A stretch of DNA of 41,800 bases from Escherichia phage vB_EcoD_Teewinot. This document shows positions 2,079 through 41,800 of the stretch, piece after piece. The DNA is taken from the sequence record NC_073053.1, one strand, 5' to 3'. Numbering within the stretch: position 1 is the stretch's first letter; every line of letters starts with the position of its first letter. Position numbers and translations under genes: made by a program. The notes beneath the pieces were generated by a model. That model ran no database searches and had not been told where the DNA came from. It saw only the letters and a program-made list of their open reading frames with translations.

Positions 2079-3599
2079 ATGACCGTTAACGTTGACAACC
2101 AGCACCCGCTCTATGCGCGCATCGCGCCAGAGTGGAAAATGATCCGTGACTGCGTAGCAGGGGAGCGCGCCGTGAAGGCGTGCGGCCCATTGTACCTGCC
2201 TCATCCCGCCAGTGGCGACAATACTGACCCGAAAGCACGGGCGCGGTATAAGGCGTACAAGCAACGCGCTGTATTCCTGAACGCCACCGCCCGCACACTT
2301 AACGCGCTGTTAGGCGTTGCCTTTGCTAAACCGGTAAGTCTGGACCTTTCCGGGGCGATGGCTGACCTGATTGACGACGTAGACGGCAGCGGTATGCCTC
2401 TGCCGCAACTCCTGCGCGGTGCTATGGCGGAAGTGCTGCAATCAGGACGTGCGGGCTTTATGGTGGACTACGACCGCCAGGCTAACTTTGATGAGCTGGG
2501 TAACGTAGTTCCGCAGACAGCCGCCGAGATGGCGTCACACCGCCCGCTTATACGCCTGTACACGGCAGAACAGATCATCAACTGGCGGCAGACCCACGGC
2601 GTCGATACGCTAATTGTGCTGAAGGAAACGGACGAAATCAGCACCGAAGACCCGGACGACTTCGCAAACCACGAAGTAACAATCTGGACCGAGCTTCGCA
2701 TGATTAATGGTGCGGCACACGCCCGCCGCTGGTACTACAACGCGGACACGTCCGAGGTGCAAATGGATTTGCCGCGTGGATTCACCCGCACCGACCTGGT
2801 GCCGCTGGTGGATGCCTCCGGTAATGCGCTTACACAACTTCCGTTTTGCTGGTGTGGTGCGGTGGACAACAACGCAACGCCTGACGCCGCTCCGCTGGCG
2901 GATATCGCGTCCATCAACATTAAGCACTACAACGCCGAAGCGGACGTCGCCGAGATTGCGCACATCGTGGGCCAACCTACCCTCGTTGCGACGGGCTTGA
3001 CCCAATCATGGGCTGACAAGAACCTGAAGGGCGGCATTGCCCTCGGTGCGACTAAGGGCGTTATCCTGGGCCAGAACATGGACGCTAAACTGATTCAGGC
3101 CGAGGAGCGCAACTTGTCTGTTGCGCTGTGTGAGCGTCGCGAATTGCAAATGGCTAAACTTGGCGCGGCCCTTGTCGAGAAGGGGACCGCACCTAAGACG
3201 GCAACCGAGGCGGCCTACGATGCGCAGACTGATAACAGTATCCTGTCGCTTATCGCCGGTAACGTTGAGACGGCTTTCAACCGTGCGCTGCAAATCGTCC
3301 AGCTATTCACGGGCGACACCGCCGACCAGCGTGTGACGCTGAATAAGTTCTACACCGAAATCACGGTTGATGCTCAGCTTATGACCGCGATGATGTCGGG
3401 GGTGCAGACTGGTACGGTCCGCCTGGCTGACTTCATCAAGTGGATGATGGCGCAGGGCGTCATAGACGACTCGCAAACCGTCGAGCAGGTGGAAGACGAA
3501 TTGCGAAATCAGAATCCATTGCCTCAAATGTCCCCTGATGCGGTAGAATCTACCGAAGAAGACCCGGACAAGGTAGCGGACAATGGCGAAGACAGTTAA
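2079..3599 (+). CDS. portal protein
   Basis: 506 aa ORF immediately after terL with acidic C-terminal tail; conserved gene order terminase-portal-head morphogenesis. Confidence 0.7.
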   Translation: MTVNVDNQHPLYARIAPEWKMIRDCVAGERAVKACGPLYLPHPASGDNTDPKARARYKAYKQRAVFLNATARTLNALLGVAFAKPVSLDLSGAMADLIDDVDGSGMPLPQLLRGAMAEVLQSGRAGFMVDYDRQANFDELGNVVPQTAAEMASHRPLIRLYTAEQIINWRQTHGVDTLIVLKETDEISTEDPDDFANHEVTIWTELRMINGAAHARRWYYNADTSEVQMDLPRGFTRTDLVPLVDASGNALTQLPFCWCGAVDNNATPDAAPLADIASINIKHYNAEADVAEIAHIVGQPTLVATGLTQSWADKNLKGGIALGATKGVILGQNMDAKLIQAEERNLSVALCERRELQMAKLGAALVEKGTAPKTATEAAYDAQTDNSILSLIAGNVETAFNRALQIVQLFTGDTADQRVTLNKFYTEITVDAQLMTAMMSGVQTGTVRLADFIKWMMAQGVIDDSQTVEQVEDELRNQNPLPQMSPDAVESTEEDPDKVADNGEDS

Positions 3600-4686: not shown

Positions 4687-5008
4687 ATATGCAGCGATCG
4701 GGGTGGTTATCGGCCTGGCGGTTGGCTTCTGGCTGGGTGATTCCTACCGCGCTGGCGTTGTGGCGAGCGCGGCGCAAGAAGCGCAAGCGAAAGCCCGACG
4801 GCAGCAAACTAAGGTTGTCGAGGGGGCAGTGCAGGCAGAACAGGCCCGCGACGTAGAATACCGGACTATCACGAAAGAGGTTGTAAAATATGTTACGCGT
4901 CCTAACCGTCCTGATTGTAGTTTTGATGCTGAGCGCGTGCGGATCAAGCAACGTGCCGTTGATGCCGCTAACGGAGTCGGCACTGCGACCGCCGTGCAAG
5001 TTCGATAA
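4679..5008 (+). CDS. i-spanin (Rz-like), putative
   Basis: N-terminal TM helix (IKYAAIGVVIGLAVGFWLG) followed by A/Q/E/K/R-rich helical region. GTG 4679 preceded by GGGGGT; the track gives a TTG start at 4649. A lipoprotein ORF is embedded in the +1 frame over its 3' end. Confidence 0.5.
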   Translation: MIKYAAIGVVIGLAVGFWLGDSYRAGVVASAAQEAQAKARRQQTKVVEGAVQAEQARDVEYRTITKEVVKYVTRPNRPDCSFDAERVRIKQRAVDAANGVGTATAVQVR

Positions 5009-5120
5009 CCCGTCCGCGGACCCCGACGAAGATTTGATGATTGACGTGAAAAATATGGAATGCGGCGCGAAGCTAAGGGCGCAAGTGCTGGAGTTGCAGA
5101 AAATAATTCGGGGGCCGTGA
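4890..5120 (+). CDS. o-spanin (Rz1-like outer-membrane lipoprotein), putative
   Basis: Signal peptide with lipobox (VLMLSAC-GSS), proline-containing mature part with a Cys; embedded out of frame in the 3' end of the preceding TM protein gene; stop codon sits in the loop of a terminator. Confidence 0.55.
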   Translation: MLRVLTVLIVVLMLSACGSSNVPLMPLTESALRPPCKFDNPSADPDEDLMIDVKNMECGAKLRAQVLELQKIIRGP

Positions 5121-5134
5121 TGGCCCCTTTTGTT
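5111..5134 (+). terminator. rho-independent terminator
   Basis: GGGGCC-gtgat-GGCCCC followed by TTTTGTT. Confidence 0.6.
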
Positions 5135-5250
5135 AGCGTGGAATACCGCAGATTTCGAGAGTCCATCATGATTGATTTGGCTTCGGTCGCTATTTCGTGG
5201 TCGCGCAGGATGTTAGCCAGAATCTGGTTTTTAATGTCTTTCGTCAGTCT

Positions 5251-5311
5251 CATTAGTGTGTCCTCGTTGTTGGTGTGCAACCAATATATGCAACCAATAC
5301 GAGGATTGCAA
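5251..5311 (-). promoter_or_regulatory. leftward promoter-RBS-ATG cassette (duplicate of the cassette at 38308-38369)
   Basis: On the minus strand: -35 TTGCAA (5311-5306), 17-bp spacer, -10 TATATT (5288-5283), two ATTGGTTGCA copies, GAGGA RBS (5265-5261), ATG (5253-5251). The 28-nt stretch TATATTGGTTGCACACCAACAA(C)GAGGAC is shared with the promoter of the gene at 38367. Confidence 0.45.
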
Positions 5312-10992: not shown

Positions 10993-11135
10993 TGAAGCGG
11001 GACAGGCGGGACGTCCCGTTTTGTCCCGCCTCTGTAAAACTGCATATCTACTCACTTCCACTGCATAAACTCAAAACGGGACAAGCGGGACGTCCCGCTT
11101 TGTCCCGCCCTGTAAATGTGCATACCTATGCAGTT
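10993..11135. repeat. pair of 30-bp GGGAC palindromes with TGCATA-containing spacers
   Basis: Two near-identical imperfect palindromes CGGGACAAGCGGGACGTCCCGCTTTGTCCCGCC around 11003-11040 and 11084-11120, each centred on GGGACGTCCC, separated by CTGTAAA(N)TGCATA-type repeats. Confidence 0.7.
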
Positions 11136-11139
11136 TTAT

Positions 11140-11313
11140 TGCATAAAGTAAGCGGGACAAAAAGCGGGACAAACAAGGGGCGGGACAAAGCGGGACAGCA
11201 CCCCGTCCCCGCCAGTGCTGCCGCGGTTTTCAGCCGATCGGGACAGCGGGACAGCACCCCAGTCTTTCAGACTAGACGGGGGTCAATGGCCCCCCTCGTC
11301 TGAGACTGAATAA
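11140..11313. repeat. 174-bp GCGGGACA-array element, copy A
   Basis: Four tandem GCGGGACA units spaced about one helical turn apart, a variable centre, two more GGGACAG units, then a long imperfect hairpin (AGACGGGGG...CCCCCCTCGTCT). Near-identical copy at 37996-38169. Confidence 0.8.
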
Positions 11314-21458: not shown

Positions 21459-21491
21459 GGTATCATCCTCTATATATTTGGTTGAGTTTTA

Positions 21492-21519
21492 GTATTACAC
21501 CGCTCAACCAGGATTGCAA
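21492..21519 (-). promoter_or_regulatory. sigma70-like promoter for the lipoprotein gene
   Basis: On the minus strand: ATTGGTTGCAA supplies -35 TTGCAA (21519-21514), 16-bp spacer, -10 TAATAC (21497-21492). Confidence 0.4.
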
Positions 21520-21540
21520 CCAATTTATGGGGATTTAGCT

Positions 21541-23448: not shown

Positions 23449-23496
23449 TATGTGGTCCTTTTTAGGGGCCATATCGCCCCGACGCGTTAACTATAG

Positions 23497-23518
23497 TGCA
23501 ACCAACCTATTGGTTGCA
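23497..23518. promoter_or_regulatory. perfect inverted repeat of the ATTGGTTGCA motif (operator-like)
   Basis: TGCAACCAA-ccta-TTGGTTGCA; the TAG stop of the HAD gene lies in the 4-bp spacer. Confidence 0.5.
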
Positions 23519-23977
23519 AGTAAATTTTGCAACATTTATTGCGTAAATTTTCGGTACCAGATCGCTGCACGCCCGACGAATTGCCGCGATGTTATTCTCG
23601 CAATCTTCAATGATGACCAGTTCCGACACGTCTGCATAGCAGACCATTTTGAATACAGCGCACGCCTTAAACTCCGGCGGCGGGGTGTCGTCCAGCATGT
23701 GGCGCATAAACAACCGGCCTACGGGGAATACTTCCAATTGCTCGACGGTAGTCTCCCAGCATTCTCGCTGCCGGTTTGTCAGATACGCGATCTCGAAGCC
23801 TTGCTCTTTGTACATGCGCAACAGCGGCAGCATATCCATGTTCAGGTCTTCGCGTACATGCGCTTTGTGCCACTTTGCCCAAAAGGTTGATTTCGTTTTT
23901 ATCCCCGGCACCAGGTCGGCACGCGCATCGCTTGAACCGTTAATAACGCCATCCAGATCGCAAATCAGTAATTTCAT
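23507..23977 (-). CDS. HAD-superfamily phosphatase (putative nucleotidase)
   Basis: 156 aa beginning MKLLICDLDGVI, the DxDG(T/V) nucleophile motif of HAD hydrolases. Confidence 0.6.
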   Translation of the reverse strand: MKLLICDLDGVINGSSDARADLVPGIKTKSTFWAKWHKAHVREDLNMDMLPLLRMYKEQGFEIAYLTNRQRECWETTVEQLEVFPVGRLFMRHMLDDTPPPEFKACAVFKMVCYADVSELVIIEDCENNIAAIRRACSDLVPKIYAINVAKFTCNQ

Positions 23978-25337: not shown

Positions 25338-25351
25338 CGTGTTGTCTCCAG

Positions 25352-25383
25352 GTATTAAAAAGGGCGTCCAAACAGGACACCCT
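25352..25383 (-). terminator. minus-strand terminator
   Basis: On the minus strand AGGGTGTCC-tgttt-GGACGCCCT followed by TTTTAAT; the mismatch is a G-U wobble only in the minus-strand RNA. Confidence 0.5.
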
Positions 25384-25401
25384 TAATGTAATGCAACCAA
25401 T

Positions 25402-27690: not shown

Positions 27691-27728
27691 CTAAAATCCT
27701 CGATATGGCTAACCGGCACACTATACCG

Positions 27729-28007
27729 CTATGCGACCAATTCAGCAACCAATAAATCGCAGTCGGCTATGTTGTCGATAACGCGAACGTCCGCACCGCG
27801 GCGGGCCATTCGATCATGTTCACGTACTTGGTGCGGCTTCGGTTTTCCTCCGGGGCGCTTCACTTCGACGAACACTATTTTGCCGTTGATGATAATAATC
27901 AGGTCGGGAGCACCTGCGCGCCCCTCCCATGCCAGTTTTCTGCAGAATCCGCCGACCTCTTTAACCCGTTTCATAAGGTGACGCTGCACCTTGCCTTCTG
28001 GTGTCAT
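27729..28007 (-). CDS. VRR-NUC domain nuclease
   Basis: 92 aa from ATG 28007; DLIIIINGKIVFVEVKRPGGKPKPHQ is the characteristic D...E.K core with downstream Q; start overlaps the HNH stop (ATGA). Confidence 0.6.
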   Translation of the reverse strand: MTPEGKVQRHLMKRVKEVGGFCRKLAWEGRAGAPDLIIIINGKIVFVEVKRPGGKPKPHQVREHDRMARRGADVRVIDNIADCDLLVAELVA

Positions 28008-28606
28008 TGTCGGCTTTTCCTTACGGCAGCGATGGCAGGTCCGATAAACTTCTTCATTTCGTCCGGGGTAAACCGGTCTCCGCGGGCTATGTTGCACTCT
28101 ACGCAGCACGGCACGCAGTTATCTTTCGTATGGCCTACTGCGTTGTCGAGTCGGTCCGCGCCATTGTCGCCGGTGAATCCGCAGTATGCGCATGGTTGAG
28201 AAGTAAGGCGTAGCACGTCCTCGGTGGTTAGGTCGGTGTTTAACCCCTTCCTTTCGTCCGCCTTACGGTACTGAAAGAGCTTATAGTAAGCTCGGATCTC
28301 TGGTGTCCGGCGGTTGTACTCACGGCGGGACTTATTAGCGCACGACCGGCATTCTTTACGAATGTGTGACTGGCTTGCCAGGTTTCCGGGCCGGAAGTTT
28401 TCCGGCGTAAGCGGCTTACGTTCCCCGCACTGACGGCACGTTACGATCTCCCCGGTATACTCTCGCCATACTTCGCGCGGCGGCGCTCCTCTTTCCTTAT
28501 CTCGTCTCTCTTTCTTATACGCCGCCATGCATTTGGCGCACCACGACTGACCCTTGTTGAAAGCGGACTCATCTTTATCCGTATTACAACGCCCACAATG
28601 TTTCAT
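28004..28606 (-). CDS. HNH endonuclease with two N-terminal zinc-ribbon modules
   Basis: 200 aa from ATG 28606 (GGGGGGT RBS); C-terminal CAYCG...GHTKDNCVPCCVECNIARGD HNH motif; inserted between the polymerase and VRR-NUC genes. Confidence 0.65.
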   Translation of the reverse strand: MKHCGRCNTDKDESAFNKGQSWCAKCMAAYKKERRDKERGAPPREVWREYTGEIVTCRQCGERKPLTPENFRPGNLASQSHIRKECRSCANKSRREYNRRTPEIRAYYKLFQYRKADERKGLNTDLTTEDVLRLTSQPCAYCGFTGDNGADRLDNAVGHTKDNCVPCCVECNIARGDRFTPDEMKKFIGPAIAAVRKSRQ

Positions 28607-28673
28607 ATACCCCCCCGAAAAATAAAACGCCAGACAATATTGCCCGACGTTTCCGCTAAAAGCAACATTTCCG

Positions 28674-30965
28674 CTACTTGCGGTAGCGATACATACAATC
28701 ACCTTCTGCGGCAAGTGGGAAGCCTTTCGCCCAAATAGGCAGGTCGCACATCAGCGCGCAAAGCTCCTCTGTCGTGTAGTCGTCGGTGTCCGGCACTTCT
28801 GTGATCAATTCATCATGCACCGATAGAACGATTTCATATCCGGCGGCTTCAACGCCAGGCATGGACCACGCGAGAATATCGCGGCACAACGCCTGTACGA
28901 TGTTCTCCGTCAGTTTGCCGCCGTAGGTATACTGGAAGCCCCACTGGCGCGTCGTCTGATTCTCGCCCTGATATTTAATGCGTGTGCTGGTGCGCTTCTT
29001 GCCGGTGTCCTCGTCGATCTCGGTCGTGACCGACAGCGCGATGCCCGGGTAGCTCATGATGCGCCCGGACGGCAACTCAATTTTCAACCACCACCCCGCG
29101 GCGTTCGGATCGTCGCGCTCCTCGTCGAAGGTTGGGTCGTGCTTCGCCTTCGTGCGCACAATCTTGAGCGCTTTCCTACCGTCCGGGCGAACGTTAGCGC
29201 CAGCCCAGTATGCTTTGCCCGGATTGCGGATTGCACACAACACCGCGTCCTCAAGCTCGGCCCAAAAGGCGACCGTCTTCGGGTGAGCCTCGCGCCACAT
29301 GCGTTTGATTGCGTCACAAGTCAGCCATACGTTTTTCGGAAGTATGTATGTTGGGCGCTCGTCTTTCTTGCCTGGCTTCGGTGGGCGTTTCGCTTCGTTA
29401 ATACGAGCGTACTCATAACCGCGTTTAGCTGCCGCCCAAATGTGATCGGGGAATGTACCCTTCATCACGTCCGCCATAGCGTAAAGGTCGAGGCCCAGGT
29501 TTTTAGCGAACTGCAAGAACGCCGCGACGCCGCCACCATAGCCCAGTCCCAATTCACACGCCTTACCGATCTGGCGCAAGTCTTTGCGGTTGGCTTTAAT
29601 GTAGTCCGGGTCCAGGCCGAACATCTTACCGGCAGTCTCACAATAGATATCGCGACCGGCCCTAAACACCATTAGCGCGGTTTTCTCGCCCGCGATCCAG
29701 GCAAGTCCACGCCCTTCCACGTTGGAGTAGTCCGCTACGACAAACTTCTTGCCCTTAGCCGGGATAATGCACCCGCGAACGGTAGAGGCTGTTAGCTTAG
29801 ATATGTCATACGCCCAGTGCGCGGTCCCGCGTAACAGGGAATTGATGCCGTTGGTGAGCATGTGCGACCGGACCCAAAACGAGACGTCGCTTTCACCCTC
29901 GCGGCGTTTAATCTTCCCTTCGTGGTCGTCGCTGTACTCGCCACGTGCCAGGTTTTGAGGCTGGAAGCCTTTACCCGCCCAGCGCAGCGTGCGCTTTGCG
30001 CCACCATACTGAAGACACCCACGGCGGCGACCATCTGCGGATAAGCCGTTAACTAGCGGATTGTACTTAGTCGATGCCGTTGATGACGCACCGAGGCGCA
30101 TTTCGATAAGCGCTTTGCCTTCGTCGGGGAAGTCCGGGTCTTCAAGCAGGTCGTTAAGTGTGGATTTCTGCGCGTTGTGGATTGTGAACGCCGGGGCGAT
30201 ATCACGCAGGATTGGCAGGAAGTCATTGCCTGTCAGTTTACCACCAAATCGCTCCCAGGCTTCCTCCTTCAATTCTTCCTTATGCGCCTGCACCGCTTTG
30301 ATCGCGGCGTTCGCCAGGTCAACGTCCACATAGAAGCCGCGGTCGTTGATCAACTGGTCGATAAGCAGGATTTCATCTTCCTTCGGAGTATTACCCCAGT
30401 CCGGTATGCGCCAGTAGACCTCACGCATCGCGATAATATCCAGCGCGGCATATCGCAAAAATTTGGCCCATTCTTCAGGGTGAGTCTCGCGAGTGTAGCG
30501 GCGGATTTTGTAAGTCTTAGGGGTTGGCTTACAGAAGCGTTTGATCAGCGCCTTGCCAGCCTTATCCTTCGCGTGTTCTGCGTCAACGCCCAGCACCTGG
30601 CATTGCATGTCGAGACTACCGGGCAGCGCGTGGCGAAAGGCCATAATCATGGTGTCTTCGATCTGGCTTACCGGCAGGTCAATACCCCACTTCTCGCGAA
30701 TAACCAGGCGGTCAAACAGGAGGCCGTTAGCCATCACTATTTTTGCTTTCTTGCGGGAAACATGGCGGAGCGCCTTGCGCAGTTCACGCGGCATTGTGGG
30801 GGATTCAGTGCAATCCCATGTCTGCACGCGGCCCTCGTCGATGGCGTATGTGCAAATCATAATCTCGGTGGTTGGGTGCTCTGCGTAGGCGTACGCCCCA
30901 ACTTTCTTCAGGTCCACCCCGCTAAATGTCTCGGTGTCGAGAAACAGACGTTCGAAGTCTTTCAT
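28674..30965 (-). CDS. DNA polymerase, family A, with 3'-5' exonuclease domain
   Basis: 763 aa; N-terminal LFLDTETFSG (exo motif I-like), C-terminal SVHDELITEV (motif C) and K...YG region; GAGGATAAAG RBS. Confidence 0.85.
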   Translation of the reverse strand: MKDFERLFLDTETFSGVDLKKVGAYAYAEHPTTEIMICTYAIDEGRVQTWDCTESPTMPRELRKALRHVSRKKAKIVMANGLLFDRLVIREKWGIDLPVSQIEDTMIMAFRHALPGSLDMQCQVLGVDAEHAKDKAGKALIKRFCKPTPKTYKIRRYTRETHPEEWAKFLRYAALDIIAMREVYWRIPDWGNTPKEDEILLIDQLINDRGFYVDVDLANAAIKAVQAHKEELKEEAWERFGGKLTGNDFLPILRDIAPAFTIHNAQKSTLNDLLEDPDFPDEGKALIEMRLGASSTASTKYNPLVNGLSADGRRRGCLQYGGAKRTLRWAGKGFQPQNLARGEYSDDHEGKIKRREGESDVSFWVRSHMLTNGINSLLRGTAHWAYDISKLTASTVRGCIIPAKGKKFVVADYSNVEGRGLAWIAGEKTALMVFRAGRDIYCETAGKMFGLDPDYIKANRKDLRQIGKACELGLGYGGGVAAFLQFAKNLGLDLYAMADVMKGTFPDHIWAAAKRGYEYARINEAKRPPKPGKKDERPTYILPKNVWLTCDAIKRMWREAHPKTVAFWAELEDAVLCAIRNPGKAYWAGANVRPDGRKALKIVRTKAKHDPTFDEERDDPNAAGWWLKIELPSGRIMSYPGIALSVTTEIDEDTGKKRTSTRIKYQGENQTTRQWGFQYTYGGKLTENIVQALCRDILAWSMPGVEAAGYEIVLSVHDELITEVPDTDDYTTEELCALMCDLPIWAKGFPLAAEGDCMYRYRK

Positions 30966-33896: not shown

Positions 33897-34148
33897 TTAT
33901 TTTGTCTCCCAGCGGTCGATTGTTTTTGCTTCGGATGCAACTGCGAAGCGAACATATTCCAGATTGGAATCCGCCCAAATATAAAAGTCGGGGTTAGTAA
34001 AGGTGGTGCGCTTAATTTGCGCGGGGGTGTTACGGCGTTTATCTATTACGGCAACGCGTGACTGAAAGCTGCCGATGCGTTCGAATAGCCAATAGTACGG
34101 GCGCTGGTCGCGGGAGTCCACCGCCTCGATTAGCGTGAAGCGTGCCAT
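33897..34148 (-). CDS. hypothetical protein
   Basis: 83 aa ORF with GAGGACGAG RBS immediately downstream of a terminator. Confidence 0.5.
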   Translation of the reverse strand: MARFTLIEAVDSRDQRPYYWLFERIGSFQSRVAVIDKRRNTPAQIKRTTFTNPDFYIWADSNLEYVRFAVASEAKTIDRWETK

Positions 34149-34159
34149 TGTCTCGTCCT

Positions 34160-34190
34160 CTAAAAATAGGCCCGCAGATTAGCGGGCCGG
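34160..34190 (-). terminator. minus-strand terminator after the acidic protein gene
   Basis: On the minus strand GGCCCGC-taatct-GCGGGCC followed by TATTTTTAG. Confidence 0.5.
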
Positions 34191-34196
34191 AATACA

Positions 34197-34640
34197 TTAA
34201 TCTTCCAGTTCGAAATAGGTTTCGACGATTTCTTTTAAATCTTTGTGGAAGTCTTCAACGTCGTCGTCTTCCAGCTTGGCGATGGATTTAATTTCGAACG
34301 CTTCCAGCAGATCATCAAATTCGTCGTTCGCGTCGTCATCGTCACCACCGGCAATAATCGCGGCATACTGTTTGATTTCGTCGCGCATCTCTGCCAGCGG
34401 ATCGGCATCTTTCTTACCTTTGCCTTTCGCCGGTGCTTTTTTAGACTTAGCCGGTTTTTCGTCGTCGTCATCTTCTACGACTTCTTTTTTAGCCGGTTTT
34501 TCGTCGTCATCTTCGACAACTTCTTTTTTGGCCTTAGACGGCTTCTTGTCTTCCTGCTTACCAACGGTTTCATAATGCTTAGCGATGGTTTCCAGTGCTA
34601 CTACTCCGCGAGTGATCAGGTTTACGATTTGCTCAAACAT
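34197..34640 (-). CDS. acidic repeat protein (candidate early anti-defence/DNA-mimic protein)
   Basis: 147 aa from ATG 34640 (GGAG RBS); runs of D/E (EDDDE, EDDDDE, GGDDDDANDEFDD, EDDDVED) and a duplicated KKEVVEDDD(D)EKPAK unit; first gene after the leftward promoter, with its own terminator. Confidence 0.6.
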   Translation of the reverse strand: MFEQIVNLITRGVVALETIAKHYETVGKQEDKKPSKAKKEVVEDDDEKPAKKEVVEDDDDEKPAKSKKAPAKGKGKKDADPLAEMRDEIKQYAAIIAGGDDDDANDEFDDLLEAFEIKSIAKLEDDDVEDFHKDLKEIVETYFELED

Positions 34641-34836
34641 GGTATATCTCCGATTGGTTAAGTTTAGGTGTCGGCAGTTAACTTCGTCGGTGGCCTTAAC
34701 ATATTGCCAGGTTACGCGTTCTCCCGTTCGGGTAGTGGACCTGGTTATATAATCACGGTTGGGAATCCTGACACTTCGATCCGGCCCCTGCGTTGCCCCT
34801 CTCCAGTTTGCGTCCTGCATCCTGTCGACGGAGTGA

Positions 34837-34866
34837 ATGATAGATTGGTTGCAGGATGGGTGTCAA
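34837..34866 (-). promoter_or_regulatory. leftward sigma70-like promoter with ATTGGTTGCA in the spacer
   Basis: On the minus strand TTGACA (34866-34861), 18-bp spacer containing the motif, TATCAT (34842-34837). Confidence 0.4.
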
Positions 34867-34877
34867 CAACTAATTTC

Positions 34878-34913
34878 AAAAAAAAAAGCGCCGAGGCAAA
34901 ATGCACCGGCGCT
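34878..34913 (-). terminator. strong minus-strand terminator inside the divergent control region
   Basis: On the minus strand AGCGCCG-13 nt loop-CGGCGCT followed by a T10 run. Confidence 0.55.
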
Positions 34914-34943
34914 AACCAATAAGAGACAATGAGACGGGAATTA

Positions 34944-34971
34944 TTATTACACGCGTGCGCGCCCGTTTCAA
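34944..34971 (-). promoter_or_regulatory. leftward promoter candidate for a short terminated transcript
   Basis: On the minus strand TTGAAA (34971-34966), 16-bp spacer, TAATAA (34949-34944); the terminator at 34878-34913 lies about 30-60 nt downstream. Confidence 0.3.
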
Positions 34972-34983
34972 TATCCAAAGGAC

Positions 34984-35012
34984 TTGACACCTTGTGGTTT
35001 TAGGTGTAGTTT
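34984..35012 (+). promoter_or_regulatory. rightward sigma70-like promoter for the HTH/primase operon
   Basis: TTGACA (34984-34989), 17-bp spacer, TAGTTT (35007-35012); followed by inverted repeat TTGGT-cattA-ACCAA (35015-35029) and AGGAGA RBS. Confidence 0.45.
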
Positions 35013-35043
35013 CATTGGTCATTAACCAACAGGAGACTGAATT

Positions 35044-35373
35044 ATGAATATCAAAGAAGCAATTGAAGTGTTATCTAATGCAATCCGCGGCGAAGCGGGT
35101 AAATCCTGGTATTACACAAATGCGGTGGATACTCTGTTATTTGAAGTGTCCAGATTATCGCGTGCTGAGAAGGAGCTTACCGCGAAGCTGGAATTGCTCA
35201 ACGGCACGGCAGCAAGCAAGCTGCAAAAGCACAATGAAGAAATGGAAGAATACAAAAAACAGGTTATCCGTTTGCGCGCCGAGGGCAAATCCTGGGCGAT
35301 GATTGCCGAGTTGACCGGAATTAATCAGAGCACAGTGCGCTCCTGGGTACGCAATAATAAAACTTCTAAGTAA
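35044..35373 (+). CDS. HTH DNA-binding regulator
   Basis: 109 aa; C-terminal GKSWAMIAELTGINQSTVRSWV is a typical helix-turn-helix; first gene of the rightward operon. Confidence 0.65.
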   Translation: MNIKEAIEVLSNAIRGEAGKSWYYTNAVDTLLFEVSRLSRAEKELTAKLELLNGTAASKLQKHNEEMEEYKKQVIRLRAEGKSWAMIAELTGINQSTVRSWVRNNKTSK

Positions 35374-35383
35374 GGCCACGGCA

Positions 35384-37648
35384 ATGAACTTAATTAAATT
35401 CGCTGTAACACGACCCGCTAAAAAAGGCGAAAAAGCCAGGGCGGAAAACTTCCAGATGACCACCGATGAGTTTTTCGAATTTATTAATGATGCGAAAGAA
35501 ATATCCTCGGTGCATATCAACAAGACGGAAGATAAAGCGGAGTATGCGCGCCGCAAGCGTAAGGCTGATGGTATTGTGGCTTATACCCGTGACGGCTTAC
35601 GCCGCAAGACCAGTGCCGTGGACCGCTCGATCCTGTTCTTCGATATCGACCGTACCGACACCCGCACCCTGCGCCGCTGCCGTAAGGCTTTCATCGACGC
35701 GGGGCTGGAGCACGTATTTCACACCACAACCGGCGACCGCCACCCGCTGAAAGGCGGCACGCGTTGCGCTCGATTCCTGGTACTCACGGACAAGCCTGTA
35801 CCGGCTGAAGACCTGGGCCGTGTCCAGTATGCGCTATTACACCAACTGGGTCTGTCAGATGTGGACTTCGACGATTGCACGAAAGACACAAACCGCCTGA
35901 TGTACCTGCCACACCAGCAGTCTGTCGTTAAGTGCCACTACGGCAAGCGCGCCCGCGTCCGTCGTCTGCTCCGCCTGGCTGACAAGCTGGGAGTCGAGAA
36001 AGAGGAAGTACGCCGCGAACTGACCCAGGGCGATGATGGTGTGGCGGACGGTATTCTGGATTGGTGCTTCCAGGCGGGATTCGAACCGCTGTCGTCTGGT
36101 CGTGGTTATGAAGTGCCATGCCCGAACGAACACCTGCACAGCGGCGAAGGGTCCACCGCTATCTTGGTTAAGGATGGCGAGATCCGTTTCAAGTGTATGC
36201 ACACCGGCAACGAGTGTTGCTCGGAGCTGAACAGACACCAGCACCTGGCGCTACGTCTTATCGGGATCCCGGACCACCTGAACGTCGAGCCACACAACAT
36301 GTCCCGTAAGCAAATCGCCGCCATCCTCCCCGGACTGGACGACGAGGAAGTGGAATCGTGCTATGAACATATCGTTGATGCGGTCGGAGACGGCGACGAG
36401 TACGGCGTGTGTACTGATGCAGACCTGGACAACGAGCCGGTCGCACTGTTCAGTAAGCACGACCCGATCATCGAAGGCCTGGTCAACTTCAAATCGACCT
36501 GGTATCTCGCCGGTGAGTCGAACATCGGTAAATCGTTCTACGTGCTGGGGCAAATGGGTGCGGTTGCCGCGGGGATTCCGTTCGGCGGTGCGAAGGTCGT
36601 CCAGTCCCATTGCTTCTATTTCGACGCGGAAGGTGGCGAAGCCTCCAACCAGCGTAAGGAAGCATTGCAGATCAAATACGAGCACGACCTCGACAAGCTG
36701 CACATTATCGATCTGCAATCACGCGGCTGGGATATCACCAGCAAATCCGGCTTGCGTGAAGTTATCAGCTTCATCAACCGCACCGCTAACGGCGAACCGG
36801 TTGGCCTGGTGGCGTTCGACTCACTCAACCAGACGGTTGCGCTGCGGTCCGCCGATGCTAAACCGTTCGACGAGAACAACGCCAGCGATATGGGTGAAGT
36901 GGTCAAAGCGCTGAAGGCCATCGCGGAAAATACAGGCGGCAGTGCTGGCGTCATCCACCACCCGGCGAAGGGTGCAAACGGCAGCAGATCCCCCCGCGGG
37001 TCCGGCGCGCTGCATGGTGCTGTAGATTCCGCGTTCTTCCTGGAGCAACCGGACGACAATCAGCCCGGACAACTTAACCTGTATCACGAGAAGGCACGTA
37101 ACGGCATCAAGCAAGCGCCGCGCGGCTTCGTCCTGCTCAAGTGCAAGGTTAAGGTGGATCTCCGCAAGTCCGAGGCGTTCGAGGCGCACCAGTCCACCAG
37201 CACCGGGCCAGACTTCGGCGACGTGGTTGCCGGATGGGACGTCAAGCCGATTGCCTCCACGCCACGCGACGAGACTCTCTACCTCGTACCGGTCGCCCTG
37301 GCACCGTTCGCTATAGAACAGGCGAAGGCGGCTGGCAAGGCCGCGGTTAAGGACGAGAATGCCGCAGGACCGCGCAACGAAAAAGAGAAAGTGCTTTATG
37401 CGGCACTGGAAAAACTGATGGAAGATAACCCGGACCATACCGGATTCAGCAAATCGGCAATTGTCCGCCAGGCGGGATTGGCAAAAGGTGGAACATCTAC
37501 GAAGGCAATAGACGATATGGTTGAGCGCGGAGTGTTAGGTTTTTATACCGATCCGCACACCGGGGCCATCTATGGGTCGTCGAATATAGTCATCAAAACG
37601 AATATACCCATCACGCTTTCTGCGACCGATGACGACCTGAAAGATTAA
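35384..37648 (+). CDS. primase-helicase (AEP-type primase domain plus P-loop ATPase)
   Basis: 754 aa; N-terminal SILFFDIDRTD (hhhDhD primase-polymerase motif) and DDCTKDTNRLMYLP, a Cys/His zinc-binding segment, then Walker A GESNIGKS. Confidence 0.7.
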   Translation: MNLIKFAVTRPAKKGEKARAENFQMTTDEFFEFINDAKEISSVHINKTEDKAEYARRKRKADGIVAYTRDGLRRKTSAVDRSILFFDIDRTDTRTLRRCRKAFIDAGLEHVFHTTTGDRHPLKGGTRCARFLVLTDKPVPAEDLGRVQYALLHQLGLSDVDFDDCTKDTNRLMYLPHQQSVVKCHYGKRARVRRLLRLADKLGVEKEEVRRELTQGDDGVADGILDWCFQAGFEPLSSGRGYEVPCPNEHLHSGEGSTAILVKDGEIRFKCMHTGNECCSELNRHQHLALRLIGIPDHLNVEPHNMSRKQIAAILPGLDDEEVESCYEHIVDAVGDGDEYGVCTDADLDNEPVALFSKHDPIIEGLVNFKSTWYLAGESNIGKSFYVLGQMGAVAAGIPFGGAKVVQSHCFYFDAEGGEASNQRKEALQIKYEHDLDKLHIIDLQSRGWDITSKSGLREVISFINRTANGEPVGLVAFDSLNQTVALRSADAKPFDENNASDMGEVVKALKAIAENTGGSAGVIHHPAKGANGSRSPRGSGALHGAVDSAFFLEQPDDNQPGQLNLYHEKARNGIKQAPRGFVLLKCKVKVDLRKSEAFEAHQSTSTGPDFGDVVAGWDVKPIASTPRDETLYLVPVALAPFAIEQAKAAGKAAVKDENAAGPRNEKEKVLYAALEKLMEDNPDHTGFSKSAIVRQAGLAKGGTSTKAIDDMVERGVLGFYTDPHTGAIYGSSNIVIKTNIPITLSATDDDLKD

Positions 37649-37960
37649 ATTTTGCGCGCATTGGGAATTCCCATATCGCTAAAGATTAAATTTTGCGCGC
37701 ATTGGTTGCCATTTTGGGAATTCCCATATCGCTAAAGATTAAATTTTGCGCGCATTGGTTGCCGATATGGGAATTCCCATATCGCTAAAGATTAAATTTT
37801 GCGCGCATTGGTTGCCATTTTGGGAATTCCCATATCGCTAAAGATTAAATTTTGCGCGTATTGGTTGCCATTTTGGGAATTCCCATATCGCTAAAGATTA
37901 AATTTTGCGCGTATTGGTTGCCATTTTGGGTGTTTTTAACTGGTCGTATTGGTTGCCGTG
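37640..37960. repeat. iteron array, about six tandem 53-bp repeats (candidate origin of replication)
   Basis: Unit AAAGATTAAATTTTGCGCGCATTGGTTGCCATTTTGGGAATTCCCATATCGCT at 37681, 37734, 37787, 37840, a 41-bp first copy at 37640 (12-bp deletion) and a degenerate sixth; each has the palindrome TGGGAATTCCCA, extended to GATATGGGAATTCCCATATC in the third copy. Starts in the last codons of the primase-helicase gene. Confidence 0.75.
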
Positions 37961-37995
37961 TAGGGTGATTATTATGAATAGTTATGCAATAAAAC

Positions 37996-38169
37996 TGCAT
38001 AAAGTAAGCGGGACAAAAAGCGGGACAAACAAGGGGCGGGACAAAGCGGGACAGCACCCCCGTCCCGCCCCGGATGGCGCGGCTTTCAGAGGAGCGGGAC
38101 AGCGGGACAGCACCCCAGTCTTTCAGACTAGACGGGGGTCAGTGGCCCCCCTCGTCTGAGACTGAATAA
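37996..38169. repeat. 174-bp GCGGGACA-array element, copy B
   Basis: Same length as copy A (11140-11313); identical over the first 60-odd bp and the last 70-odd bp except one A/G difference, with a diverged roughly 40-bp centre. Confidence 0.8.
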
Positions 38170-38307
38170 AATCCCAATACACGGCAGCATAGTGAAAATT
38201 GCGTCGAGGGTAGAACTCGGCAACCAATGCGGGTTGGATAATGGAGAGTGGGAAATGCAGCCACCGCGGATAGCGATCAACTTTTTCATGCGCATGATTA
38301 ATATTGG

Positions 38308-38336
38308 TTGCATTCGTGCCAGCACCCTGCTATATT
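38308..38336 (+). promoter_or_regulatory. sigma70-like promoter built from two ATTGGTTGCA copies
   Basis: TTGCAT (38308-38313, from motif copy 1), 17-bp spacer, TATATT (38331-38336), then motif copy 2 (38334-38343), GAGGA RBS and ATG 38367. Confidence 0.45.
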
Positions 38337-38366
38337 GGTTGCACACCAACAAGAGGACTGCACAAA

Positions 38367-38708
38367 ATGAAATTTCCAGTAACTATCACCGGCAACGACC
38401 ACGGCACTTACGAGAGTACCAAAATGAAAGCATTAATCTGGAATTACACAATGGCGATGGCAAAGCTGAACGAAGCGAAAGCGCTGAACGGCAACATCGA
38501 CCGCGCGGCACATATCGTAATACTGGCACAGCAGGCAATCATGTGCGCGCTCGACGGCATGGATGAACTGGCGAAGGCAATTCACGAATACGCGCAGGCA
38601 TTCTCCCGTGAGCGCCTGGCATATCGCTTCGGGATCGGCGAGACGGCAGTGACAAACGTCGCCCGGATTAAAGCCCAGCGCGAACTATTCGCCCAGCTTG
38701 CGAAATAA
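38367..38708 (+). CDS. hypothetical protein
   Basis: 113 aa from ATG 38367 (GAGGA RBS); the track start at 38304 lies inside the promoter. Confidence 0.55.
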   Translation: MKFPVTITGNDHGTYESTKMKALIWNYTMAMAKLNEAKALNGNIDRAAHIVILAQQAIMCALDGMDELAKAIHEYAQAFSRERLAYRFGIGETAVTNVARIKAQRELFAQLAK

Positions 38709-38717
38709 GGGGTCAAA

Positions 38718-38987
38718 ATGGGCCGTAGGCGAGCAAAACAGCTTTCGTGGCATATTCCCCTGCATTGCATACGAATATGGGCTCAGAATGCGACTGAGGG
38801 CGATTCTGTGTCCTGGAGCTATCGCGATGATGTGAAGCCGCTGACGCAGACTCGCTACTTGCACCAGTTCGCAGCGCAACACGATTTCAGGGTGCGGACT
38901 TCCTTGCGACCAATGGGAATACGTATTACATTACGCAAGAAGCCCGCCATTGAGCGGGTGGGCAAACACTGGAGACTGAGCAAATGA
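38718..38987 (+). CDS. hypothetical protein
   Basis: 89 aa, basic, AAGGGG RBS. Confidence 0.5.
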   Translation: MGRRRAKQLSWHIPLHCIRIWAQNATEGDSVSWSYRDDVKPLTQTRYLHQFAAQHDFRVRTSLRPMGIRITLRKKPAIERVGKHWRLSK

Positions 38988-39076
38988 CACCAATGCAAAG
39001 AGCGCTAATGGCGGGATTCTCGCAGAAGTTTATTTCGGTAGGCGACTATAAGACTGTTGAGGAGACTGAGCAATGA
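38984..39076 (+). CDS. small hypothetical protein (absent from the ORF track)
   Basis: 30 aa (MTPMQRALMAGFSQKFISVGDYKTVEETEQ); start overlaps the previous stop and its stop overlaps the next start, both in GGAGACTGAGCAA(A)TGA contexts. Confidence 0.3.
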   Translation: MTPMQRALMAGFSQKFISVGDYKTVEETEQ

Positions 39077-40597: not shown

Positions 40598-40657
40598 TTG
40601 CTTGACTCGGGACCGTGGTATATTGTCCTCTGACCAATAACCAGGAAGTTAATTAAT

Positions 40658-41800
40658 ATGCACCCGCAAACTAAAATCACCGACGAGCAATTGATCGCCG
40701 AGTTGCAATCCGGCACTACCTCGAAAGATATTGCGAAGAAATACGGCCTTTCCCTCCGAAATGTCTACATGCGAAAAGCCCGCCTGTCGAAGAAAGGGAT
40801 TGGACACGGCAATGATGCCGTAATCCGTAAGCGCGTTGCCGATGGATTTGGCGTTAAGCGTGTATCCGCCCTGGTGCGCGGCAATGGCGAAGAGGTCATG
40901 TCGTGGGTTATCACTGAGCAGGACAAGGAGCGCCAGCTTGAGGCGATGCGCGCAGTGCTGGATGGCATGAACAGCGAAATCACACCGGCAGCACCAGTTA
41001 GCGCCCCGCCAGTACCGATCCAGGCGCTCGACTTGCTCAACCTGTACACCGTGTCAGACTTCCACCTGGGCATGTTGGCATGGGGCGAGGAGACTGGCGA
41101 AGACTGGGATATGGCGATCGCCGAAGACCTGTTCTACCGCTGGTTTGTCGAAGCCTTCGCACGCGCCCCGGACGCAGGCACTGCCGTAATTAATATCCTC
41201 GGTGATATGGCCCACTTTGATAGCCTCGATGCTGTCACTCCGGCAAGTGGTCACATACTGGACGCCGACACCCGCTACCAGAAACTGGTCCGATACATGA
41301 TTCGCATGGTGCGCAACGTCGTCGAACTGGCGCTGCAAAAACACCACAAAGTCAAACTGCTAATCGTCCAGGGAAATCATGACGAGTCGGGTATGATTTG
41401 GCTGGCTGAGATGTTCAATACTCTGTACGAGAACGAGCCGCGCGTCGATGTGGATACGTCCCCGGACGTCTACAAAATGGTGCAGCACGGTAAGACCACG
41501 CTATTCTTCCACCACGGGCACAAAGCGCGATTCGATGCTATCGAGCAGGTTATGATTTCTAAATTCAGACAGGCTTTCGGATCCAGTGAGTACAGCTACG
41601 CGCACGTAGGCCACTTGCACCACCAGAAGATTGTAGAATCCCGCAACATGATTGTTGAACAGCACCGGACGCTCGCAGCGAAAGACGCCTACGCCAGTCG
41701 TGGCGGTTGGATGTCCGGTCGCAGCGCAAACGTCATTACCTACAGCGCCAACTACGGCGAAGTAGCGCGCTTAACCATTAGCCCGGAAATGTTGAAGTAA
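40658..41800 (+). CDS. SbcD/Mre11-like metallophosphoesterase nuclease with N-terminal HTH
   Basis: 380 aa; N-terminal HTH-like TTSKDIAKKYGLSLRNVYMRKARL; phosphoesterase motifs VSDFHLG, ILGDMAHFD, VQGNHDE, HHGH, GHLHH. Complete ORF ending at the window edge. Confidence 0.6.
   Translation: MHPQTKITDEQLIAELQSGTTSKDIAKKYGLSLRNVYMRKARLSKKGIGHGNDAVIRKRVADGFGVKRVSALVRGNGEEVMSWVITEQDKERQLEAMRAVLDGMNSEITPAAPVSAPPVPIQALDLLNLYTVSDFHLGMLAWGEETGEDWDMAIAEDLFYRWFVEAFARAPDAGTAVINILGDMAHFDSLDAVTPASGHILDADTRYQKLVRYMIRMVRNVVELALQKHHKVKLLIVQGNHDESGMIWLAEMFNTLYENEPRVDVDTSPDVYKMVQHGKTTLFFHHGHKARFDAIEQVMISKFRQAFGSSEYSYAHVGHLHHQKIVESRNMIVEQHRTLAAKDAYASRGGWMSGRSANVITYSANYGEVARLTISPEMLK

Follow-up and report, generated by a model that had tools for sequence, protein, structure and literature searches.

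Early promoters laden with operators and origins built from repeats are well-known kinds of phage regulatory DNA. Those closest to the case below are the OR/OL operators of lambda, read by Cro and CI, the iterons of plasmids and of phage P1 (RepA), the MotA-box middle promoters of T4 with the Mor/C promoters of Mu, and the type I repeats of P4, read by the primase-helicase α. Here we analyze a short word, ATTGGTTGCA in its exact form, that lies over the core of most predicted early and stand-alone-gene promoters and recurs in origin-like repeats of Escherichia phage vB_EcoD_Teewinot (NC_073053.1). The stretch studied, hereafter the window, comprises 41,800 nucleotides (nt) and is a nearly complete genome of a Dhillonvirus; members of this genus are common E. 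coli phages, included in the BASEL collection and used in research on defence systems and on therapy. From the sequence comparisons below, we judge the odds slightly in favor of (A/G)TTGGTTGCA being the word that a sequence-specific DNA-binding factor encoded by the phage recognizes, with a small zinc-ribbon protein, Zn39, as the best candidate reader. In the literature we found no description of the word, of promoters or transcriptomes of Dhillonvirus or of the related Edwardsiella phage eiAU, or of a Dhillonvirus origin, and no Dhillonvirus transcript-start data.

The exact word occurs eight times in the window against 0.08 copies expected from dinucleotide shuffles, and with at most one mismatch 19 times against 2.86 expected, a count reached in none of 100 shuffles. 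Non-coding DNA, which makes up 6.9% of the window, holds seven of the eight exact and 15 of the 19 near copies (binomial P = 6e-8 and 1e-14, respectively), and the eighth exact copy overlaps a stop codon. The commonest 9-mer of the window is ATTGGTTGC, with 16 copies. The first-pass annotation had noted a recurrent 10-mer with an intergenic preference: its listed sites are present within 1-2 nt (5276, 5289, 21515, 23497/23509, 25392, 34844, 38219, 38303 and 38334), the counts stand far above shuffled controls, and the word is confirmed as real and conserved across related phage groups. Missing from that list were a tandem pair at 27732/27744, within the 3'-terminal part of one coding sequence, and the copy at 38905, inside another; the degenerate copy that it placed at 34651 is weak, being only ATTGGTTAAG with three mismatches. 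Its statement that every iteron carries a degenerate copy holds for five full repeats and one partial one, which have ATTGGTTGCC, but not for the truncated first unit, which has ATTGG only. Likewise, the inverted pair at 23497-23518, described as perfect, does have perfect 9-bp arms, but these are separated by a 4-nt spacer and the left arm reads GTTGGTTGCA. Dyads are otherwise few, namely short ones at the +1 position (ATTGGT-N5-ACCAAC), and most sites are single words or direct repeats.

Column conservation was scored over seven non-coding regions in alignments of 7-17 distinct Dhillonvirus sequences. Motif columns have a mean identity of 0.988, with 90% of them at least 95% conserved, against 0.871 and 60% for the other non-coding columns, and across 16 Dhillonvirus genomes the copies appear as conserved islands in variable flanks. 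Scans with the helicase-primase, PolA and two small proteins recovered the deeper lineages L148, L249/L239, L334, L335 and L336, whose helicase-primases are 66-68% identical to that of the window in L249 and L334-L336 (L148 has a fragment of the gene only). In each of these, ATTGGTTGC is again the top 9-mer and lies at syntenic sites, including a 12-nt tandem before the zinc-ribbon gene and 13-17-nt tandems before stand-alone genes. Still more distant is the Edwardsiella phage eiAU-183 (L027; helicase-primase 45% and PolA 63% identical), which has (G)TTGGTTGCA and promoter layouts that match those of the window, including a 12-nt tandem with TATAGT at 42946/42934. The word and its architectures persist where the flanks are unalignable, in eiAU, L148, L249/L239 and L334-L336. 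About 59 other relatives that share the polymerase, and mostly also the helicase-primase, are without the word; this set, comprising the Jersey-like phages (PolA 61-67%), the L017 type and more distant ones, has 0-4 copies of TTGGTTGC per 22 kb and GGTTGCA at background level. Scans of viral contigs for paired words returned mostly coding repeats and chance matches, and were informative only for L239 and for an unrelated viral contig (L048, IMGVR_UViG_3300038463_000167). In the latter, 12 copies of TTGGTTGC, mostly as cTAATTGGTTGCAtcc, lie within ~450 bp (2754-3174), an origin-like cluster with a shared core word.

The word overlaps predicted sigma-70-type promoters in three registers: as the -35 element (TTGCAx), in the spacer beside the -10, and across the -10/+1 region. 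Seven sites have -35 and -10 elements 16-18 nt apart (38308-38336, 5283-5311, 34837-34866, 34984-35012, 23490-23519, 27720-27748 and 21492-21519), several of them with a -35 matching at merely 3-4 of 6 positions; a promoter scan independently picks the leftward early promoter P_L, 23519-23490 and 5311-5283. In the -35 register, TTGCAx stands 16-17 nt upstream of a good -10 at 38303, 21515 and 27744. The spacer register is represented by copies at 5289, 23497 and 27732 and a reversed one at 34844, and the -10/+1 register by TATATTGGTTGCA at 5276 and 38334. At the promoter of the gene starting at 38367, the second copy (38334-38343) spans the start region and is overlapped by the -10; over 16 Dhillonvirus loci the -10 and the two copies are invariant while the 17-nt spacer drifts, and the 32-nt architecture recurs in eiAU (L027 18148/18116) as TTGCAT-17-TATAGTTGGTTGCA. 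P_L is the best sigma-70 match of the window, at 11 of 12 positions. Its hexamers and its motif-filled spacer are all conserved in the 16 loci, and the deeper lineages have one or two reversed copies, overlapping when there are two, in the same spacer. The rightward early promoter P_R shows conserved hexamers and a variable spacer in the 16 genomes; downstream of it, a degenerate dyad, ATTGGTcattaACCAAC (35014-35030), immediately precedes the ribosome-binding site of a helix-turn-helix (HTH) gene at 35044. In L148, L249 and L334-L336 a full reversed copy lies in the 5' leader of that gene. P_L, P_R and the block between them are nearly invariant in Dhillonvirus. The hexamers are kept and the spacer drifts, as in an ordinary sigma-70 promoter, at 38308-38336 and P_R, and at P_L the spacer is conserved too.

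The remaining promoters extend these layouts. That of the zinc-ribbon gene is embedded in the 3'-terminal part of the VRR-NUC gene and is kept in every motif-bearing lineage. The 23497 site, previously read as a pure palindrome, is actually part of a predicted leftward promoter, and its counterpart in L148 is a direct 17-nt tandem; L148 also has a tandem version of the Cor-like gene promoter. The 25391 site had been reported to be without a usable -10 but has TACATT. Its relatives have a tandem pair with TACATT or TATATT (L001 26548/26531; L148 10324/10340), and the window has lost the -35 copy via a 17-bp deletion. L239 keeps the Nmad5-like gene promoter, there with a spacing of 15 nt. About 30 nt, the leader ACACCAACAA(C)GAGGAC among them, are common to the promoters at 5276 and 38334, which are therefore paralogous. 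The word also occurs at positions that RNA polymerase does not read, namely promoter spacers, the -10/+1 region, the 38219 island and the origin repeats. With TTGCAx serving as a -35 and conserved copies lying outside the polymerase-read positions, the dual role first proposed for the word, as promoter element and separate binding site, is supported. At 25338-25401, and also in L337 (10193-10271), a tandem-motif promoter is followed immediately by a terminator-like hairpin and T-run, with the inferred start in the 5' arm of the hairpin; in this layout read-through RNAs would end at the hairpin, and promoter-started RNAs could not form it in full.

The second setting of the word is an array of repeats that directly follows the helicase-primase gene. 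Tandem Repeats Finder reports a period of 53, 5.1 copies and 96% matches (37661-37930), and an AT-rich stretch (~37960-38005) comes after the array. The repeat number varies, from 5-6 in the window to 2-3 in the annotated relative GeorgBuechner (L001); the deeper lineages have 3-4 ATTGGTTGCC at the equivalent place, the first ones in the last codons of the helicase-primase gene, and eiAU has at least eight copies of the word after this gene. Direct repeats beside a replication gene and an AT-rich region, as in an iteron origin, are thus both present; the co-variation of initiator specificity with the repeats that such an origin would entail is not seen, the helicase-primase being without motif-correlated conservation. 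Each 53-bp repeat also holds a perfect GGGAATTCCC palindrome, which suggests a second, dimeric binder, possibly the C-terminal domain of the helicase-primase. In the GenBank record of phage jat a 'repeat_region' is annotated under the matched stretch, presumably the 53-bp repeats. Repeats are also found 3' of the helicase-primase gene in the motif-less L017, L022 and L026 types, and these do not recur at the promoters of those loci.

Phyletic profiling of all early proteins singled out two that are confined to motif-bearing lineages, Zn39 and a degenerate HNH_3-like protein. A hidden Markov model (HMM) of Zn39 matches all 18 motif-dense loci that cover the region (E < 1e-29) and none of 59 motif-poor ones (best E = 0.28), counts that are not phylogenetically independent and amount effectively to the Dhillonvirus clade plus eiAU versus the rest. 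Zn39 thus has no discordant locus, against one (eiAU) for the HTH protein encoded at 35044 and one each way for the HNH_3-like protein, which was also undetected in L337/L338 (see below) and was set aside as a reader. Between lineages Zn39 keeps 65-71% identity, a level that most other small early proteins do not reach, being at 33-58% or undetected; the large replication enzymes are conserved to about the same degree as Zn39. In eiAU, Zn39 matches an unannotated open reading frame (ORF). Its CxxC pairs are invariant. The AlphaFold2 model has short zinc-ribbon strands and a C-terminal helix (residues 38-56), with a predicted local distance difference test (pLDDT) score of 76. In PHROG, Zn39 matches zinc modules from the 'Lar-like', EndoVII and HNH families of endonucleases. 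HMMER (phmmer) retrieves 914 cluster representatives, the best of which have 2-9 tandem modules, together with some stand-alone proteins of 54-82 residues. Several of the arrayed-module proteins match Pfam Stc1 (PF12898); Zn39 itself is below the Pfam threshold. The occurrence of the module in arrays of 2-9 copies, seen in hundreds of proteins, fits a unit that reads nucleic acid.

A prospective test was provided by contigs found only via a Zn39 homolog, P0033 (65-67% identical), in L337, L338 and L339, the sole more distant homolog that could be retrieved with its context. The phage of L337/L338 is very different, with a PolA only 26% identical, a DUF5906 primase and a Cro-type HTH; the 35044-type HTH (HTH50), the AAA_25 helicase-primase and the HNH-like protein were undetected in these two contigs. 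They have 0-1 TTGGTTGC, and their top 10-mer is TCTGGTTGCA; the word used there is a variant, CTGGTTGCA, one base from TTGGTTGCA. CTGGTTGC is enriched about tenfold, with 7 copies against 0.66 and 8 against 0.77 expected, compared with 1 against 1.4 in the window. The variant also recurs in familiar layouts: tttaCTGGTTGCTgctCTGGTTGCGagcaggTACACT precedes the Zn39 gene (window counterpart, tttATTGGTTGCTgaATTGGTCGCAtagcggTATAGT), a 17-nt tandem pair with TAGTAT and a hairpin follows it, and an inverted pair with TAGAGT precedes an Nmad5 gene. Within each genome the ATTGG half does not vary, and in the L337 type TCTGG replaces it at all sites. Because this one-base change is concerted at all sites and travels with a diverged Zn39, it points to a common reader. 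At the DNA level, L338 resembles the Dhillonviruses only inside the Zn39 gene (84-95%), for which reason this gene and its promoter may move together. Homologs of Zn39 adjoin HNH_3 or HNH endonuclease genes (L338 2228-2749 and 5302-5787; eiAU L027 17150-17674), which hints that the Zn39 gene is mobile or a homing target.

Several points weigh against Zn39 as a dedicated reader of the word. Every -35 and -10 was assigned by consensus match, and the -35 role by itself could account for the conservation of TTGCA at about half of the sites. The spacings between copies (9, 12, 13, 15-17, 31-32 and 53 nt) lack helical phasing. The origin copies end in C, and the comparison with the L337 type includes no origin cluster. 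Zn39 has no characterised DNA-binding homolog; a Pfam search with it found nothing above threshold, and Foldseek with its model gave nothing significant, the Stc1 tandem zinc finger being among the weak matches. Few independent events underlie the phyletic pattern (the Dhillonvirus clade, eiAU and the L337 type), and since a motif promoter stands immediately upstream of its gene, Zn39 could hitch-hike with the word instead of reading it.

Allowing for these points, Zn39 fits the role of reader better than the neighboring 35044 HTH. More tentatively, and with a good deal of doubt, we propose that a 57-residue, single-module Stc1-like zinc ribbon, kin to the DNA-contact modules of HNH/EndoVII-type endonucleases, was domesticated to read, genome-wide, a word of 9-10 bp in early and stand-alone-gene promoters and at the origin, and this in several siphovirus lineages that are otherwise unrelated; protein and word would co-evolve (TTGGTTGCA versus CTGGTTGCA) and may move as a portable regulon. 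The last six bases of the word double as a weak -35 (TTGCAx) in delayed-early and stand-alone-gene promoters. Under the main reading, that of a phage-encoded factor with Zn39 as its best candidate, P_L and P_R, with their consensus TTGACA -35 elements, would fire first, and Zn39 would be made initially by read-through from P_L and then from its own tandem-motif promoter. As the reader accumulates, it would occupy the spacer and +1 copies, shutting off P_L and P_R, and would repress, or possibly activate, the weak promoters whose -35 lies within the word. It would also occupy and mark the origin copies, and the early transcription switch would thereby be coupled to replication.

Among the alternatives to Zn39, the one suggested by the first-pass annotation, in which the word is the operator of the 35044 HTH, which autoregulates P_R and represses the other promoters, has several points on its side: the gene adjoins the divergent P_L and P_R and heads the rightward early operon, its product matches Pfam HTH_23 and Sigma70_r4_2, the C-terminal half with the recognition helix is nearly invariant in the Dhillonvirus clade while the N-terminus varies, and in deeper lineages a copy of the word lies in the gene's own leader. 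The protein is encoded in every motif-bearing lineage but eiAU. There, tblastn and a six-frame HMM search find no homolog in a phage that has both the word and its architectures, and the gene's position holds a Cro-type HTH, as in all motif-less relatives; eiAU gp54 has a weak HTH_7 match only and does not align. By parsimony the word is therefore older than the 35044 gene, which looks like a later replacement of the Cro-type HTH. The L337-type phages, with the one-base variant, are also without it, so that the rule of a lambda-like system, a cognate HTH wherever the operators are, breaks down in eiAU and in L337/L338, and we regard this candidate as unlikely, although within Dhillonvirus the protein may act as a reader. 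Also unlikely, and ranked below it, is that no dedicated binder exists and that a duplicated promoter cassette is read by the host sigma-70 polymerase alone, the origin copies then serving transcriptional activation of replication as at the T7 primary origin. TTGCAx does serve as a -35 at many sites, the 5276 and 38334 promoters are paralogous, and the replisome is T7-like (PolA, a gp2.5-like single-stranded DNA-binding protein (SSB) and a primase-helicase). Yet the spacer, reversed, 38219 and origin copies are conserved though they have no usable -10 at the right distance, ATTGG is uniform per genome and switches in concert to TCTGG elsewhere, and Jersey-like relatives on Salmonella and Enterobacter, hosts related to E. 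coli, do without the word.

By analogy with the P4 α protein or plasmid Rep proteins, the word could instead be the iteron of a replication initiator, the C-terminal winged helix of the helicase-primase, with the promoter copies giving replication-coupled control. The arrays begin inside or just after the helicase-primase gene in all motif-bearing lineages, and by our reading of the alignment alone the C-terminus resembles a winged helix. We nevertheless find this improbable: by sliding-window identity no segment of the window's helicase-primase is closer to eiAU than to motif-less relatives, and none correlates with the motif, for which reason the protein was rejected as a reader. Its C-terminal ~100 residues (~650-754) are 7-20% identical to eiAU versus 12-33% to L017 and are the least similar part, and the L337 type combines a variant of the word with an unrelated DUF5906 primase. 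A DNA-binding protein of the enterobacterial host would explain why E. coli and Edwardsiella phages share the word while differing in candidate phage HTHs. It is at odds with the absence of the word from Jersey-like phages of Salmonella and Enterobacter that have an equal genome plan and with a one-base switch that tracks a phage protein; we know of no E. coli regulator having this site, and think such a factor very improbable. Sigma-54/NtrC-like readings and CytR, PdhR and RutR boxes were set aside because, to our knowledge, their spacing is unsuitable. Least probable of all, in our estimate, is an RNA-level signal, in which the reverse word (ACCAAY), just 5' of ribosome-binding sites, would be a target either for base pairing by a small RNA with AUUGGUUAG (34936 to 34878, minus strand) or for a translational regulator. 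ACCAA(C/T) does stand directly before the ribosome-binding site in at least six genes, as well as in the eiAU hyp48 homolog, and a conserved promoter-terminator unit would give an RNA of ~60 nt with a 25-nt single-stranded 5' part. Most copies, however, lie upstream of inferred starts or in the origin and are not transcribed in the right sense, Rfam gives no match, and the proposed pairings are of 5-8 bp only. A 5'-terminal RNA hairpin, TTGGT...ACCAA, was rejected likewise, as its 5' half is upstream of the inferred start and would stay untranscribed.

The features discussed are collected in Table 1. The gene map was obtained by placing annotated proteins of GeorgBuechner/Bas16 on the window by tblastn; the region 34000-39000 is 90-93% identical to many Dhillonvirus Escherichia phages. 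Sequence and fold searches against the PDB were uninformative for the HTH protein, the helicase-primase and Zn39.

Table 1. Coordinates of the promoters, word copies, repeats and genes considered in the window.
Feature	Coordinates	Strand or direction	Description
Promoter of gene at 38367	38303-38343	plus	copy 1 (38303-38312) gives -35 TTGCAT (38308-38313); 17-nt spacer; -10 TATATT (38331-38336)
P_L, predicted leftward early promoter	34837-34866	minus	TTGACA-18-TATCAT; reversed copy 34844-34853 fills spacer beside -10
P_R, predicted rightward early promoter	34984-35012	plus	TTGACA-17-TAGTTT
Zinc-ribbon gene promoter	27720-27753	minus	TTGCTG-17-TATAGT; ATTGGTTGCT (27744-27753, -35 TTGCTG), ATTGGTCGCA (27732-27741, spacer), -10 TATAGT (27720-27725)
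DUF6378 gene promoter	23490-23519	minus	TTGCAA-18-TATAGT; -35 from reversed copy 23509-23518, GTTGGTTGCA (23497-23506) in spacer
Remnant promoter, gene starting 25337	25392-25401	minus	one copy and -10 TACATT, then hairpin and T-run
Cor-like gene promoter (gene start 21458)	21492-21524	minus	copy 21515-21524 gives -35 TTGCAA; 16-nt spacer; -10 TAATAC
Truncated Nmad5-like gene promoter (gene start 5253)	5276-5311	minus	-35 TTGCAA (5306-5311); copy 1 in spacer (5289-5298); -10 TATATT (5283-5288) overlaps copy 2 (5276-5285)
Isolated ATTGGTTGCC copy	38219-38228	minus	promoter-free surroundings; GGCAACCAATGC an invariant island amid variable flanks
ATTGGTCGCA copy	38905-38914	minus	inside coding sequence, antisense; exact copy in GeorgBuechner (L001 40002)
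Origin-like array	37649-37970	plus	five 53-bp repeats and a partial one, directly 3' of helicase-primase gene
ATTGGTTGCC (C-ending variant) copies	37701, 37754, 37807, 37860, 37913, 37948		
ACCAA(C/T/A) leader sites	5254-5275, 34641-34662, 35024-35043, 38344-38366, 40633-40657, 21459-21485		
Zn39, zinc-ribbon protein of 57 residues	27515-27688	minus	CxxC...CxxC; MIEEKRCSNCGC...CKSCRN, then basic C-terminal helix
HTH protein (HTH_23 / sigma-70 region-4-like)	35044-35373	plus	Pfam HTH_23, Sigma70_r4_2; first gene of rightward early operon
Degenerate HNH_3-like protein, 107 residues	25402-25725	minus	secondary candidate reader; only in motif-bearing lineages, including eiAU gp17
Structural block	~131 to 21219	rightward	by GeorgBuechner homology
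Early/replication block	34820 down to 22309	leftward	PD-(D/E)XK nuclease, SSB, PolA, VRR-NUC, SNF2 helicase, methyltransferases, others
Second rightward block	from 35044	rightward	109-residue HTH (35044), 754-residue helicase-primase (35384-37648), then small genes, lysis genes, terminase

Some further elements deserve mention. The reverse of the word's 5' half, ACCAA(C/T/A), lies 0-4 nt upstream of the ribosome-binding site in at least six genes, and the eiAU hyp48 homolog also has an ACCAA-type leader, CTAACCAACTGAGGA; this element may be the second half of the +1 dyad or a translation signal. Between P_L and P_R, on the minus strand (34878-34971), a promoter TTGAAA-17-(TG)AATAAT (34971-34943) precedes a GC-rich hairpin with a ten-U run. 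The transcript would begin with ~25 unpaired nt that include AUUGGUUAG; the block hardly varies among the 16 genomes, is annotated as a 36-residue ORF in GeorgBuechner and has no Rfam match, as indeed has no part of the window, and is probably a small RNA or an attenuator. Word-free extended -10 promoters are predicted just after terminators at 52-60 (TGTTATAAT, upstream of terS) and 40616-40624 (TGGTATATT, upstream of the gene for a 380-residue protein at 40658), and may drive late genes. The Nmad5-like gene (4744-5253, minus) is truncated, with homology only in its first 38 residues, the rest running antisense into the spanin genes, and an ORF of ~0.7 kb between the VRR-NUC and PolA genes (28004-28714, minus) has a counterpart in none of the relatives examined.

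Other repeats adjoin or accompany the origin array. GCGGGACA forms two paralogous clusters with 16 copies in total (13 direct, 3 inverted), one between the tail chaperone and tape-measure genes (10997-11253) and one immediately beyond the AT-rich stretch that follows the origin repeats (38008-38109); annotated as the small proteins 'hyp18' and 'hyp52' in GeorgBuechner, they look like protein-binding arrays, and at the equivalent slot of L239 CGGGAC repeats adjoin copies of the word. The 8-mer ACGGCA(A/G)C occurs 48 times window-wide against 4.65 expected (e.g., 1560, 9158, 16945, 20046, 36978 and 38181), in all three reading frames (35 sense, 10 antisense), and also in L017-L024 and L252-L309. 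The related 9-mers AACGGCAAC and CACGGCAGC are top k-mers in essentially all PolA/helicase-primase relatives, including the Jersey-like phages. Since the genes are co-oriented with forks leaving the origin, most copies of the 8-mer would be on the lagging-strand template; a signal for primase or for helicase loading is conceivable, and the 8-mer looks like a family-wide feature, of which we found no description.

The word maps seven predicted promoters, two strong early ones with built-in control sites, and an origin, and its analysis yields a short list of candidate readers. If Zn39 does read it, a function would be gained for a widespread, uncharacterised zinc module with more than 900 cluster representatives, and for recognition studies and orthogonal phage promoters there would be a natural protein/word specificity pair one base apart.

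Set beside the systems named at the outset, the locus shares with each only a part. As in the OR/OL region of lambda, several copies of one word cover parts of divergent early promoters (-35, spacer and +1), which would give an autoregulated early shut-off. The sites overlap the core promoter as they do there; they are, however, mostly asymmetric single words, direct, inverted or overlapping, instead of 17-bp dyads, they occur also at the origin and at the promoters of stand-alone genes of a virulent phage, and the candidate reader is not an HTH repressor. With the iteron plasmids (pSC101, R6K) and P1 it has in common direct repeats beside a replication gene, related sites on promoters that include an inverted pair, and one word joining replication and transcription. 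It differs in that the 10-bp word is set in a 53-bp unit with a separate palindrome and is found on many promoters beyond that of rep, and in that the helicase-primase bears no sequence sign of reading it. A good -10, a poor -35 and a phage word in the -35 region recall the T4 MotA and Mu Mor/C promoters, and could likewise constitute an early-to-middle switch. The MotA box, though, replaces the -35 at a fixed ~12 nt from the -10, whereas here the distance varies, the word being at the -35, spacer or +1, and second copies occur in the spacer or at +1; MotA, AsiA and Mor are not annotated in GeorgBuechner, and no search was aimed at homologs of these. Like P4 (ori, crr), the locus has short words that cluster, in either orientation, close to a primase-helicase gene, but P4 α reads its repeats by its own C-terminal domain, and that domain does not co-vary with the word here. 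Zn39 itself appears to correspond to one CxxC...CxxC module of the Stc1-like (PF12898) type, of which the relatives among phage and bacterial HNH/EndoVII-type proteins carry 2-9, and departs from them in standing alone, with a basic helix and no nuclease domain; we know of no phage regulator of this type. What is new here, against operators and origins of familiar kinds, is the sharing of one word between them, its spread across unrelated backbones and a zinc ribbon as the candidate reader.

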